64,000 nt of DNA from Octopus sinensis (lineage: Eukaryota): contig NC_043002.1 in NCBI RefSeq assembly GCF_006345805.1, positions 99,138,001 to 99,202,000 of the forward strand. Reading direction: 5' to 3'. The position numbers and the translations under genes were made by a program. The notes below the pieces were generated by a model. That model saw only the letters and a program-made list of their open reading frames with translations. It was not told where the DNA came from and did no database searches. Of the stretch, positions 808 through 34,217 are shown piece after piece. Numbering within the stretch: the stretch's first letter is position 1; the number at the start of each line of letters is the position of its first letter.

Positions 808-963
808 TATCTATCCATCTATCTATCTATCTATCTATCTATCTATCTATCTATCTATCTATCTATCTATCTATCTATCTATCTATCTATCTATCTATCT
901 ATCTATCTATCTGTCTGTCTGTCTGTCTGTATGTATGTCTGTCTGTCTGCCCATCTATCTATC
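808..963. repeat. (TCTA)n/(TCTG)n microsatellite
   Basis: Direct tandem repeat. Confidence 0.95.
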
Positions 964-1458
964 AAGAGTAGAGAGGGAAGTTTTGTCTAGTGAATGTTTA
1001 AAAAAAAAGAGATGTATGTATGTAAGAAGGAGGGCAAACTGTGAATGACGGAGCCAGCTTTAGCACAATCCTATGAACCAAAAGAAACAAAAAAGCGAAA
1101 GGAAAAAGAGACAAACTTCCTGTAATGTGTTTTCTTTTGCATGACACTATTGCTCAAGGTTCCCGTGGTCTTTTCTGTAGGCTTTTCTATCCACGGACAA
1201 ACCTAATCTGTTTTCCCTTTTTACATTGACCTTTCTGTGGTACAAGATCTCTATTGATCGGCCCCACCTTTTTTTCACGACCCCTTTGATCGCGATTCCC
1301 TCCTTTTTTTTCACGACCCCTTTTGATTGGAATTCGCCCCTCTTCCCCACCCTCCTTTTCTTCTTCCCAAAAAGAAAACCTCTACTTTATATTTTGTCCC
1401 TTCTGTGTTTAGCTTTGCGTAACCAATAAAGAAATCTATCTACCTATCTATCTATCTA
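964..1458 (+). mobile_element. 5'-truncated Tx1/L1-like LINE (end of ORF2, 3'UTR, (TCTA)n tail), same family as 32687-33753
   Basis: RVEREVLSSEC...NDGASFSTIL* (stop 1074-1076) matches RVERQVLSSEY...NDEATLSMIL* of the 33 kb copy; the 3'UTR block ggttcccgtggtcttttctgtaggcttttctatccacgg is shared; AATAAA at 1425-1430 is followed by TCTA repeats. Confidence 0.85.
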
Positions 1459-1520
1459 AACACATGCAAATACATAGACCTATATGCATATATATATATA
1501 TATGACTATATAAAATGAGT

Positions 1521-1597
1521 ATGTGTGTGTGTGTGTGTGTGTGTGTGTGTGTGTGTGTGTGTGTGTGTGTGTGTGAGAGAGAGAGAGAGAGAGAGAG
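1521..1597. repeat. (GT)n(GA)n microsatellite
   Basis: Direct tandem repeat. Confidence 0.95.
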
Positions 1598-2623
1598 TAA
1601 ATATCAACGTGAAACTTAAACAGAATTTTCATTTTCTCATAGATAAACGTGCAAGTGATATTTGAGTCGAACATAGACTGAATAAGTTTATTTCTTGGTG
1701 AAAATTCATTAGCCAGTGTTGAATACATTCATCAAATTGCTATCACAAAGAAAAGAAAACTAAACTACATATGAGAATACTGTAAGATAATACAATGATT
1801 GACGTATGTAAATCAATTGAAATAACTTACTTCACATGTTTCTAGTCTCTTGACAGGATGGTACTAGGTTCCATTTCTCAGAGTGTTAATCATGTATTAT
1901 ATATGCATACATGAATGAAAATGACAGGTGGATTAATCGATTCATCAGTGGTTTCATGGTATTGTCAGTTCATTCATTTAGGATGGAACGAATTGTATTC
2001 ATTATTGTGTGTTACTAAAATACGGTTGTATATGACATTTAGCCGTGTTTTAGCAATCAATTTCATTGTTTTCTATCTTGACGTTCGAAAGTTCTTTTGT
2101 AATTACTTTTTACTACTATACCGTTGCTAACTATAAATTAGTAACTAAGAATTTATTGCGAGAAAATACTGTCTTAATGACTTAGTCTTATTACATGGGA
2201 GTCACAGTTGTCATATTATACAACGATGCTTGGTGTTTAAGGTTGTTCGGCTCATGATCAACAATAAGATTTCGAGTTCAATTGTCGGATCAGGGAAAAA
2301 CGTGTGCTTTAAGAAGGCAGCTCATATCAAGTCGCTTAAGTAGTGAGTACCAAACACGTATTAGAGTAGTCCTCTCCCACTCTGTGTCCCTTATCCTGAA
2401 GGTTCCATGGCAGTCAGAATTGAGGCTGCCTCGGTGGCATCTATGTTTGCTCTCGACTTTTCTAACAATTCCTTTAATTCAATAATGAAAACATTACATC
2501 ATCGTAAAGAAAACGTTGTCGTCAGATGAAATCATGATCTTAAAAAGAGAGGACAATCAAAATGATTTAACATAGTCTACAATCCACGGCACAAAATACA
2601 TTTACAGTGATTCTGGTACTATT

Positions 2624-2685
2624 TGAGTCTGATGAAATGTTATTATGAATCAATTAAAGGAATCATTTGAAACGGCCGTAATCGA
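2624..2685 (+). ncRNA. Degenerate minimal type I hammerhead ribozyme motif
   Basis: CTGATGA 2629-2635, helix II aatg..catt, GAAA 2669-2672, palindromic helix III ACGGCCGT, GTA triplet; helix I is weak. Confidence 0.55.
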
Positions 2686-30924: not shown

Positions 30925-31325
30925 ATATCAATAATAAAGGGCAAAATCAATTGATTATTAATTAATTTCACCAAGTGGTGTTCAGTATGTAAAAGGACCA
31001 TTCAAGGTATATTCAAAATATAGGGCTCAGTAAAATAATTTACTTTACCACATACTGAATTTTTAGAAATAGCAGCCAAAAAGTTTTTTTAGCCATTTCT
31101 ACTACTTTAAGAAAAGTCTCCCAGATAGTGTTTACTCAAAAATAATTCACGTAGATGTGGAGGGAAAGCAGCAAGATATCACATGTACAAAGATTATTTG
31201 AGACGCTCAGGTTTCTAGATTAGTCGAATTAAAACTCGACATTTCTTTCGTCAGCTCAACATTTCTTAATTTGGATTTCTAAAAATGTCAGTATGTGGTA
31301 AAGTAAATTATTTTACTGAACCCTA
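30925..31325 (-). mobile_element. Diverged relative of the 37.4-38.7 kb HHR repeat, with an internal inversion and a decayed HHR (about 31196-31259)
   Basis: Homologous blocks (ttcagtatg..gtaa..tattttact; ttgaatggtcc..catactgaacac); ttgag-CTGACGA-aaga..tcta-GAAA-c..ctcaa; inverted repeat 31028-31070 vs 31275-31318. Confidence 0.7.
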
Positions 31326-32287
31326 ATTATATAACGTAATATATATATATATATATATATAATATATGTGTGTGTATGTGGGATGGGGTGGGGTGATTGT
31401 GGGGGTGGGCGTGAATACATATATATATATTTATATATATATATATATATGTATAAATGTATGTATGTGTAGGTGTGTGTGTATGTAGTGTGCGTATGTA
31501 AGTATGCATGGGTATATCTGTGCATTTATGCGTGTGAAGGTGATTATTTTACGGAACCGTAAAGAATCTGCCATACAGTAATCACTTCGTCTACGCACTC
31601 TGAGTTTCAATCGCTCACAGATCGATTTTGACTTTTATTCTTTCATTCTTTTATTCTTATGGAATCGATAAACAAGTACCATATTGTACTAGAATATGTT
31701 CTTCTCTCTCTCTCTCTCTCTCTCTCCTCTCTCTCCCTCATTAGCTTTCACTCTCCTTCTCCCACTCTCTCTCTCTCTCACTCATTCTTTCCCTCACACT
31801 TTATCTCTTTGTCTTTCTTTCGGAGAAATAATCCGCTGTAGTCACATCCAGAATGTGATGTTCCATCAAATTTGAAAATGGCCATTACACATTATTTATA
31901 GCAAAAGAGTATCTTACTACTCTATCAAGCGGTTGAGGTACCTAAGTAAAACAGAGAGAGAGAGAGAGAGAGAGAGAGAGAGAGAGAGAGAAAGAGAGAG
32001 AGAAACATACAAAAAAACGAATAAAAATACATACATGTATACTACGTTAGTCTTTCTCAAACAATGTGATAAATTGTGCGTATGTTGCTTTTAGAGTTAA
32101 ATGTGGTTTATAGCAGTGCAAAAGAGTATTATCAAATAAATTATGAGACATCAGAAACAGAAACAAAAATACCAGTATATGATAACAGACAGTATGGATT
32201 TTGCATTTGGTTTTAATGCTATGTTTACTTATGAAGTGAATGATATAGACAAGGCTGTTAGGTAGACAGATAGATTGTAAGGTGGAC

Positions 32288-32686
32288 AGATAGATAGATA
32301 GATAGATAGATAGATAGATAGATAGATAGATAGATAGATAGATAGATAGATAGATAGATAGATAGATAGATAGATAGATAGATAGATGGATAGACAGACA
32401 GATAGATAGATAGATAGATAGATAGATAGATAGATAGATAGATAGATTGATAGATAGATAGATAAATAGATAGATAGATAGATAGATAGATAGATAGATA
32501 GATAGATAGCGAGTGTATGAGCGAGGAGAAAAGGTTTTGCGGAGATAGACAGATAGATAGATAGACAGACAGATAGATAGATAGATAGATAGATAGATAG
32601 ATAGATAGATAGATAGATAGATAAATAGATAGATAGATAGATAGATAGATAGATAGATAGATAGATAGATAGATAGATAGATAGAT
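32288..32686. repeat. (GATA)n arrays containing a duplicated 36-bp unique segment
   Basis: Tandem repeat; 32510-32545 equals 33848-33883 with one mismatch. Confidence 0.95.
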
Positions 32687-33753
32687 ACGTAGATATGTTT
32701 CTTTATTAGCCACACAGGGCTGCACACAGATAGAACAAATTACAAGGTAGAGCTTTTCTTTTGAAGGTTTAAAAAAAAAAAAGGAAGGGGGAGTTTCGAT
32801 CAAAAGGGATCGTAAAAGGAGAGAAAGAGGTCAAAAAAAGGGGGGTTAAAAAAAAAGGGGGAGAGGAAAAAAAATTGATCAATAGGGATCGTTATCACAG
32901 AAATGTCAATATGAAGTGTAAAGGGGAGGACAGGTGAGGTTTACCCGTGGAAAGAAAAGCCTACGGAAAAGACCACGGTAACCTCGGTCAATGGAGTCAC
33001 ATGTTATATTTCTGGGTTCTGGTTTCAATTTCTGGGTTCATAGGATCATGCTCAAGGTGGCTTCGTCATTCATACGTGCCATTCTTGTTACATTCACCCA
33101 TCTTTTTTTAAAATATTCGCTAGACAAAACTTGCCTCTCTACTCTCACTTTCCTTTTCAAGTGGTACTTGAAGAAGTTGATGAGAGATTGACCAGAGAGG
33201 AAGTGTTTGTCTCCAATCCTTTCAGACGTGTCCACCAGATACATTCTTTCGCCATAGCCACAAGGATGATGAAAATAGCTCTTCCTTCCCGTTTGAAGGA
33301 AGGAGGCGTGACAATATTGACGATAGACTCAGCTGATAAACCGACTCGTCCCACACGTGACAGCAGTTGTCCGACATAAGCCCACAGGTCGGAAATTGTT
33401 GGACACTGCACGAGTGCGTGTAGAACGGTTTCGTCGCTCTGACCGCATCTCGGGCAGGTCGGCCCCGTGTTTCTCGAGCCGTGTCTGTAGAGATTATCCC
33501 GAACGGGTAGCGCTTCTCGGTAGCACTGCCAGGCCAGGGATCTCTGGAAGTTGTCCATGGGCCCTGGCCCGAAAGTCGTCCTGAACAGGCGGGTTAGGTA
33601 CTCCTCGTCGACGTCCAGGTTAGCCCCGAGCTCGTCGTCGTACCTCCCCTCCACTAAACCCCTATAGAATGCTTTGGTTGTGTTGAAGTCACTCAAGGTC
33701 GACCCAGGACGGCAGAGTTGCTTGAGAGCAACGCGACACTCGCGGTGCCATTG
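32687..33753 (-). mobile_element. 5'-truncated Tx1/L1-clade LINE (ORF2 C-terminal zf-RVT region plus 3'UTR)
   Basis: AWQCYREALPVRDNL..TCPRCGQSDETVLHALVQCP..LW is a zf-RVT-type CCHC; frameshifts into ..RWVNV..MIL* (stop at 33038); AATAAA at about 32702-32707. Confidence 0.9.
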
Positions 33754-34217
33754 TAGATAGATAGATTGAAAGATAGATAGATAATAGATAGATAGATAGA
33801 TAGATAGATAGATAGATAGATAGATAGATAGATAGATAGATAGATAGCGAGTGTATGAGCGAGGAGAAAAGGTTTTGCAGAGAATATTTAGTTAAAACAA
33901 TCCAACAAATATCTCTCAACTGCGTCTTGTTGCTCGATAAATTGCTACAGTTCAATGGTTTCGTGAGCAATTTTTTTTATTTATATATTTATCATCAGGT
34001 TGTTTTATTTGTGTGTTTGTTACCACACCGTTATCAATAGCCAGAGACTGTCAGTATATATATATTTTCAAACATCGAACTCTTTCCGGCCATTCAGGCT
34101 GGGATTCATTACCTTTTATTCAGTAAGATTTTCAATGCTCTATGTGTTGCACATCTTGGTTTCTTTTGGGACACGATATTGAGTGATATGGATTTATAGA
34201 AACGCGCCGAAATCCTA

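Follow-up and report, generated by a model that had tools for sequence, protein, structure and literature searches.

Two truncated LINE copies inside TCTA arrays

The DNA analysed here, called the window below, is a stretch of 64,000 nucleotides from Octopus sinensis (NC_043002.1, positions 99,138,001 to 99,202,000). It contains two truncated copies of a long interspersed element (LINE), copy A on the plus strand and copy B on the minus strand (Table 1), each lying between arrays of the tetranucleotide TCTA. A preliminary description, made from the letters alone, had noticed both copies and proposed a Tx1-like LINE that targets TCTA, is tailed by TCTA, or both, and that could seed GATA arrays. 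The reading favoured here, at a probability of roughly two in three, is a cephalopod LINE of the L1/Tx1 type that prefers (TCTA)n/(TAGA)n arrays already present as insertion sites and enters them in one fixed orientation.

BLASTN matches copy A to copy B at E 3e-45 (68% over 520 columns), and 331 of 420 bases are identical in the A/B alignment, so the two are homologous. Their 3' end is common. Their 5' ends are ~608 nt apart, with B reaching further 5' and encoding the C-terminal ~237 codons of open reading frame 2 (ORF2). Since the copies are homologous but truncated at different points, they are separate insertions, and they probably belong to diverged subfamilies. Truncation at the 5' end with a fixed 3' end is the pattern of an L1/Tx1-group LINE with an apurinic/apyrimidinic endonuclease (APE). 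Poly(A) is missing at the 3' end of both copies. B ends at 32698 and not at 32687 as first given, the surplus 11 nt being repeat. No third copy of the family is found within the window by BLASTN, nhmmer or tblastn.

Both copies carry TCTA flanks on the 5' and the 3' side, and after AATAAAGAAA the repeat starts in one phase and one orientation in A and B. Two independent, differently truncated copies in TCTA, in the same element orientation, are thus borne out by the junctions, the BLASTN match and the ~608-nt offset. When flanks are scored against background for these two copies, a same-orientation TCTA 12-mer lies just upstream of both 5' junctions and of 803 of the 127,754 strand positions of the window (0.63%). 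The chance that both 5' junctions fall in oriented TCTA is 4e-5 for this motif and 7.5e-4 across oriented microsatellite classes; these figures are post hoc, concern two insertions, and have a background that counts host arrays too. Among the 170 AATAAA hexamers of the window, two are followed by TCTA, namely those of A and B. As a control, matches to four other repeat queries were inspected, and in 1/42 at least two TCTA/TAGA units lie no more than 40 bp from an end; these queries are partly dependent, two being halves of one short interspersed element (SINE).

Table 1. Features of the window discussed in the text
Feature	Position	Strand	Remarks
Copy A	964-1434	+	Decayed last ~33 codons of ORF2 and 3' untranslated region (UTR), terminus AATAAAGAAA; tblastn match to ORF2 C-terminus of homologues P0002 and P0004
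Copy B	33753-32698	-	5'-truncated LINE: ORF2 C-terminus and 3' UTR, terminus AATAAAGAAA
ORF2 C-terminal part of B	33038-33750	-	zf-RVT zinc-binding domain, PF13966, E 8e-9; single frameshift near 33200
54-nt 3'-terminal module	1381-1434	+	Common to copy A, copy B and three short interspersed element (SINE) copies
(TCTA)n decaying into (TCTG)n, ~158 bp	806-963	+	Adjoins 5' junction of A; presumed target
(TCTA)6, short (~25 bp)	1435-1458	+	Directly after AATAAAGAAA of A; CTAC variant at offset matching that in B
(TCTA)n, 94 bp	33847-33754	-	Adjoins 5' junction of B; decayed TTAT and CAAT variant
(TCTA)n, ~150 bp	32697-32546	-	After B (apparent tail); TTAT and CTGT-CTGT variants common to next array
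Sister (TCTA)n array, uninterrupted	32509-32259	-	Surrogate of pre-insertion site
Unique flank U, first copy, 31 bp	33848-33878	-	Start of 131-bp direct repeat
Unique flank U, second copy, 31 bp, identical	32510-32540	-	In second arm of direct repeat
SINE copies with LINE-like last 54 nt	6877-6660, 45195-44963, 44963-44780	-	3/13 SINE matches have this tail
First ORF1-only element	23035-21315	-	Zinc-knuckle ORF1, no ORF2
Second ORF1-only element	40221-42313	+	Terminus AATAAAG
Reverse transcriptase (RT) fragment of another LINE	63564-63974	-	RVT_1 E 3.5e-18

The array interrupted by copy B

Copy B is surrounded by a direct repeat of 131 bp (33883-33754 and 32545-32415, 95% identical), which the preliminary description overlooked. 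The order at this site is U, array, B, array, U, array, and the 131-bp repeat consists of U and the start of the array that follows it. The three arrays can be written in a unit code in which A=CTAT, T=TTAT, C=CAAT, G=CTGT and K=CCAT. The left array then reads A16 (tat) A2 (cttt) C A2, the apparent tail of B reads A15 T A12 GG A3 G A, and the sister array reads A11 T A3 C A11 GG A K A24 G. Two variants occur in the apparent tail and the sister array and nowhere else in the window: the isolated T unit (CTAT-TTAT-CTAT, at 32628 and 32469) and the exact GG (CTAT-CTGT-CTGT-CTAT, at 32576 and 32405). This argues that the apparent tail is the remainder of the local array. Most simply, as judged from the units, this array would have been broken by B after 'C A2', and the sister array may stand as a surrogate for the site without the element, a long array. 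Targeting of TCTA, as first proposed, is therefore supported by both copies and by the uninterrupted array beside B.

The 131-bp repeat was favoured at first as a true target duplication and then ranked lower. It is more likely a separate local tandem duplication of flank and array, because a target duplication of this kind would place the nick in unique DNA, because copy A has no such repeat (it is found at one of the two copies), because duplications made by APE LINEs are short, and because the window holds at least four further local duplications of 300-540 bp. Target duplications of APE LINEs are generally 10-20 bp, and the extreme cited is 126 bp in R9 (PMC6895275). Among related elements in the window, three are flanked by direct repeats, which are 20, 15 and 19 bp long and contain 1-2 mismatches, and a fourth element tested has none that is convincing. 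Many local duplications, 300-600 bp long and 94-99% identical, are seen, at 37427-38751, 47549-48371, 54485-55129, 59713-61105, 59123-61977 (inverted) and 43737-44361, along with a 66-bp minisatellite.

Family identity and relatives

Copy B has six homologues at 62-69% identity (P0001-P0006), three of them with RVT_1. Homologues in this range carry RVT_1 and zf-RVT; the endonuclease (EN) and RT parts are truncated away in the window copies. With P0004, the longest homologue, as query, an Argonauta hians protein is matched at 68%, and the closest named relatives of the LINE are octopod proteins. Among solved structures, L1 ORF2p is the best match to P0004 (E about 1e-50), followed by R2. A tree was built from 34 C-terminal sequences, which were picked from several hundred matches and include no labelled Tx1. 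In this tree B falls into one group with the Argonauta protein and P0001-P0006, at a support of 100/100. The sister of this group is a 15-row group that includes two loci designated L001 and L023. The matches of the three homologue searches include no labelled Tx1, Kibi or Koshi reference.

The relative L023 encodes a zinc-knuckle (zf-CCHC) ORF1 and an EN-RT-zf-RVT ORF2 (Exo_endo_phos, RVT_1, zf-RVT). Such a layout is called consistent with the Tx1 clade, which has a Type I ORF1 (RRM/zf-CCHC) and not Transposase_22 (PMC5203782). The zf-RVT domain of B, the RVT_1 homologues and the ORF2 domains of the sister group agree with the initial naming as an L1/Tx1-like LINE, and on these domains and homologues an L1/Tx1-type assignment of the family is well supported, the Tx1 clade proper being a candidate placement. 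In Octopus vulgaris, L1-Tx1 elements are common, with 80 families, 56 Mb and 13 families recently active; the available text makes no statement on their insertion targets (PMC13282606). A further match, P0007, comes from Octopus bimaculoides. It is an ARHGEF10-like gene model, and over its first ~45 residues it matches ORF2 of B at 80%. This LINE-derived start is either a gene-model artefact or an exonised copy.

A scan of prokaryotic-genome contigs gave 38 overlapping loci (L001-L038), all from one assembly record and 42-45% identical to P0004. They form head-to-tail arrays of intact two-ORF Tx1-like LINEs with a period of ~6.4-6.9 kb, on many contigs of a record filed as a prokaryotic metagenome-assembled genome. 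Their presence there is probably eukaryotic contamination, and the head-to-tail order points to repeated insertion into a single site. Of 48 ORF2 ends in these relatives, 43 have a GGCCTYGTGCC hairpin and after it AATAAA(G) (the motif is missing in 5), a poly(A) run follows at none of the 43 hairpin-bearing ends, and (TCTA)3 or (TAGA)3 occurs in none of the 38 loci. In one subfamily (L025, L030) a spacer of ~16 nt stands between AATAAAG and the next copy, whether that copy is full-length or 5'-truncated. The spacer would be regenerated target, and the array ends lie outside the observed loci. The first prokaryotic contig scan, made with the C-terminal alignment, gave 35 pattern matches and 0 confirmed ones. 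The second gave distant relatives only and no further flank of the A/B family. No match was found among plasmids by tblastn, Rfam gave 0 matches on six loci and the window, and ARAGORN gave 0 genes.

A 3' end common to LINE and SINE copies

The last 54 nt of copies A and B recur as the tails of three SINE copies (Table 1), at 32-37 identical positions of 54. Such scores are reached by 3-5 of the 347 AATAAA-like sites in the window, a count that includes the five ends themselves. All three SINE copies are followed by sequence other than TCTA, and two of them continue directly into the interior of a further copy of this SINE. It is likely that the SINE was mobilised by this LINE group. The SINE may resemble the octopus tRNA-derived SINEs. 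Another type of SINE tail (50617, 26097, 6931) shows the hairpin motif and the next bases as in the 3' UTR of L001 (L001:4985). There is a hint, from these sequence likenesses, of a deeply conserved 3' recognition signal across SINE and LINE relatives. RNA folding of eight 3' ends gives a small hairpin before AATAAA in B, in two of three SINE tails, in an ORF1-only element and in both relatives, and none in A. The z-scores of the six window sequences range from +0.2 to -1.35, and folding is not used as evidence.

In this lineage the element appears to stop at AATAAAG(AAA), the downstream sequence being target. The description of the LINE as TCTA-tailed is mostly unsupported: the apparent tail of B has window-unique variants in common with the local array, and the relatives and SINEs that share this 3' end lack a TCTA tail. 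A stub of ~10 nt may be element-borne: a CTAC variant follows AATAAAGAAA in both copies, and CTAC accounts for 2/163 units between CTAT neighbours in the window. This variant speaks for the first ~10 nt after AATAAAGAAA travelling with the element. A stub of ~10 nt at most may be inherited from the donor, and this would suit RNA-DNA pairing in priming.

Proposed insertion mechanism and its alternatives

What is observed is the anatomy of the copies; the enzymatic steps proposed here are borrowed from target-primed reverse transcription in APE LINEs. The APE endonuclease of ORF2 would nick an existing array on its (TAGA)n strand. The freed 3' end could then prime reverse transcription at the 3' end of the RNA, perhaps aided by the ~10-nt donor-derived (UCUA) stub. 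An early stop of reverse transcription would leave a 5'-truncated copy, and a cut of the second strand ~15-30 bp away would create a short target duplication hidden in the array. With the duplication hidden in this way, the flanking repeat on both sides would be mostly target DNA. Insertion into microsatellites would give the element a plentiful target at which it does little harm.

Several observations weigh against insertion into existing arrays. Only two copies are at hand, and they were chosen after the fact. The endonuclease domain is absent from the window and from the homologues of the cephalopod group. No microsatellite target is seen at the 38 related loci, which overlap one another and derive from a single assembly and a different host. 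An exact short target duplication is not readable inside the array of A or B, and the T unit on both sides of B requires either a duplication of at least 28 bp with one slippage or recurrent mutation. Finally, the CTAC variant stands at an equal offset after AATAAAGAAA in A and B, its motif having three sites in the window.

The last point would also be explained if the element chose a short site of 2-3 TCTA units and the duplicated site and stub then grew by slippage, so that the element would help to create GATA arrays. The 3' array of A, only ~25 bp long, fits this explanation, as do the phase and the CTAC variant common to both copies and the long and variable arrays of the window. At B, however, flank and array occur twice with shared internal variants, and one of the two arrays is uninterrupted, which points to a long array before insertion; moreover, none of the five other arrays lies behind an element end. 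Growth from a short site is thus rather unlikely. If instead the LINE carried an RNA-derived tail of ~150 bp and the 131-bp repeat were its true target duplication, each insertion would add 150-250 bp of GATA DNA. The repeat does adjoin the 5' junction of B exactly and resumes directly after the 3' array, its 31 unique bases are identical in both copies, and a duplication as long as the 126 bp of R9 is known from another LINE (PMC6895275). Yet the priming nick would then fall in unique DNA 31-38 bp outside the array, the supposed tail and the local array have window-unique variants in common, and A has a 3' array of only 25 bp and no duplicated unique flank. A duplication of 131 bp also stands against the 10-20 bp general for APE LINEs (PMC6895275) and the 15-20 bp of the relatives in the window, which moreover has at least four local duplications of 300-540 bp elsewhere. 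We consider such a long tail quite improbable.

Random insertion, followed by chance co-location or by preferential survival in microsatellite-rich DNA, has to be considered with two copies, the more so as a microsatellite of some kind precedes ~8% of positions. For Waldo-A/B of Drosophila, passive accumulation near CA repeats has been proposed (PMC3812793). But A and B agree in motif, orientation and phase (4e-5 to 7.5e-4), no orientation is expected from passive retention, and only one of the 42 control matches lies near TCTA, so that random insertion seems very unlikely. An assembly artefact at B, for example the tandem joining of a filled allele with an empty one, would touch the 131-bp repeat only and not the TCTA junctions. 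Several near-identical local duplications and single-base frameshifts in otherwise open frames are what such an artefact might leave; the join, however, has no N gap (the sole N run of the window is 28348-28447), and neither the number of units nor the variants are the same in the two arrays. Even if this highly improbable event had occurred, the empty allele would be represented by the second copy, which would still show a pre-existing array.

Insertion into existing arrays can also be placed in a wider scheme, which taken as a whole is doubtful. Here a poly(A)-less cephalopod Tx1-like lineage would nick GATA repeats, prime by means of read-through (UCUA)n, sometimes duplicate ~130 bp of target, and both exploit and enlarge GATA arrays. 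It would be part of a radiation of sister elements that have one 3' hairpin-AATAAAG module and different targets (microsatellite, SINE heads), and that mobilise the SINE and ORF1-only passengers. Such a radiation would form a natural series in which changes of target by APE endonucleases could be followed.

TCTA arrays elsewhere in the window

Nine TCTA arrays pass the filter, with 823 bp or 1.3% of the window; the short 3' array of A is below the filter. Five of them lie away from A and B, and upstream of these the 3' module is found in 0/5 cases; they adjoin other simple repeats. The 3' module has five significant matches in the window, two of them beside TCTA. A repeat-tailed LINE that seeds arrays does not describe this element, which has repeat on both sides and whose 3' module precedes none of the five distant arrays. 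The suggestion that it seeds GATA arrays is accordingly unsupported here and is rejected for the 64-kb window, as none of the distant arrays follows an element 3' end; decayed old remnants are conceivable.

Comparison with known elements

Tx1 elements that target microsatellites are known from vertebrates. Kibi and Koshi of teleost fish target (TC)n and (TTC)n, respectively (Kojima and Fujiwara 2004, as cited in PMC4494074 and PMC3812793), and crocodilian Tx1 families target (TTCC)n/(TTTC)n (PMC4494074). The octopus element is similar to Kibi and Koshi in being an APE-type L1/Tx1-group LINE that lies inside a microsatellite on both sides, 5'-truncated copies included. It differs in its mollusc host and in its unit, TCTA, which is not pure pyrimidine and is none of TC, TTC, TTCC and TTTC; the elements are likened here by mode of insertion and not by kinship. 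With the crocodilian families it has a tetranucleotide target in common, the unit and the phylum being different. The crocodilian paper (PMC4494074) also describes Tx1 relatives and SINEs with other repeat targets, as the relatives in the window appear to have. The crocodilian SINEU partners are poly(A)-tailed (PMC4494074), whereas no poly(A) is seen at the octopus elements here. In that paper, a family is regarded as microsatellite-targeting when >20% of its copies are flanked by the target. Both copies of the window are flanked by TCTA, and two copies are too few for this threshold.

R9 is a ribosomal-DNA-specific element of the restriction-like endonuclease type with a fixed duplication. 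The 126-bp target duplication of this rotifer element resembles the 131-bp direct repeat around B in length; R9 is cited among examples of staggered cuts (PMC6895275), and nothing comparable flanks copy A. RTE elements whose 3' repeats give rise to microsatellite families (PMC2887409) are similar in that a microsatellite directly follows the 3' end of a LINE. Here, in contrast, the repeat is on both sides and is mostly apparent target DNA. The sister group L001-L038 resembles the octopus LINE in its EN-RT-zf-RVT ORF2 (~42% identity to P0004), its zinc-knuckle ORF1 and its AATAAA(G) end without poly(A), and differs in its head-to-tail arrays with short non-repeat spacers and no TCTA.

A literature search pairing Tx1 with GATA or TCTA gave no TCTA-targeting Tx1; the figures and supplements of PMC4494074 may list further targets, and Repbase and Dfam were outside the search. 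No such element appears in the accessible text of PMC9115989, PMC8967140, PMC10294476, PMC4758252, PMC3124438, PMC3747384 and PMC9977147. The octopus LINE is thus probably a new member of the Tx1-type LINEs that target microsatellites, for which the literature searched shows neither this target unit nor this host phylum. If confirmed genome-wide, it would extend these LINEs from vertebrates to molluscs and add a unit that is not pure pyrimidine. This is an incremental addition and implies no new mechanism. In 2013, the choice of microsatellites by APE endonucleases was described as poorly understood (PMC3812793). It would become testable in a genome whose sister elements differ in target, by comparison of their endonucleases. 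GATA markers in these animals could also adjoin mobile DNA, which might lead to shared flanks or null alleles.

Other elements in the window

Two ORF1-only elements are present. The first encodes a zinc-knuckle ORF1 homologous to that of L023 (E 2e-10). It ends in a 3' hairpin and AATAAAG and has a flanking direct repeat of 20 bp with 2 mismatches. It resembles HAL1, the 'half-L1' (PMC5753468), but comes from a Tx1-like lineage. The second is 26% identical to the first and sits in an abundant SINE with a 15-bp duplication, which suggests a sister lineage that targets SINEs. An ORF at 245-595 on the plus strand has no Pfam match and presumably resembles an RTE C-terminus. The RT fragment near the end of the window belongs to another LINE and is 27% identical to P0004.

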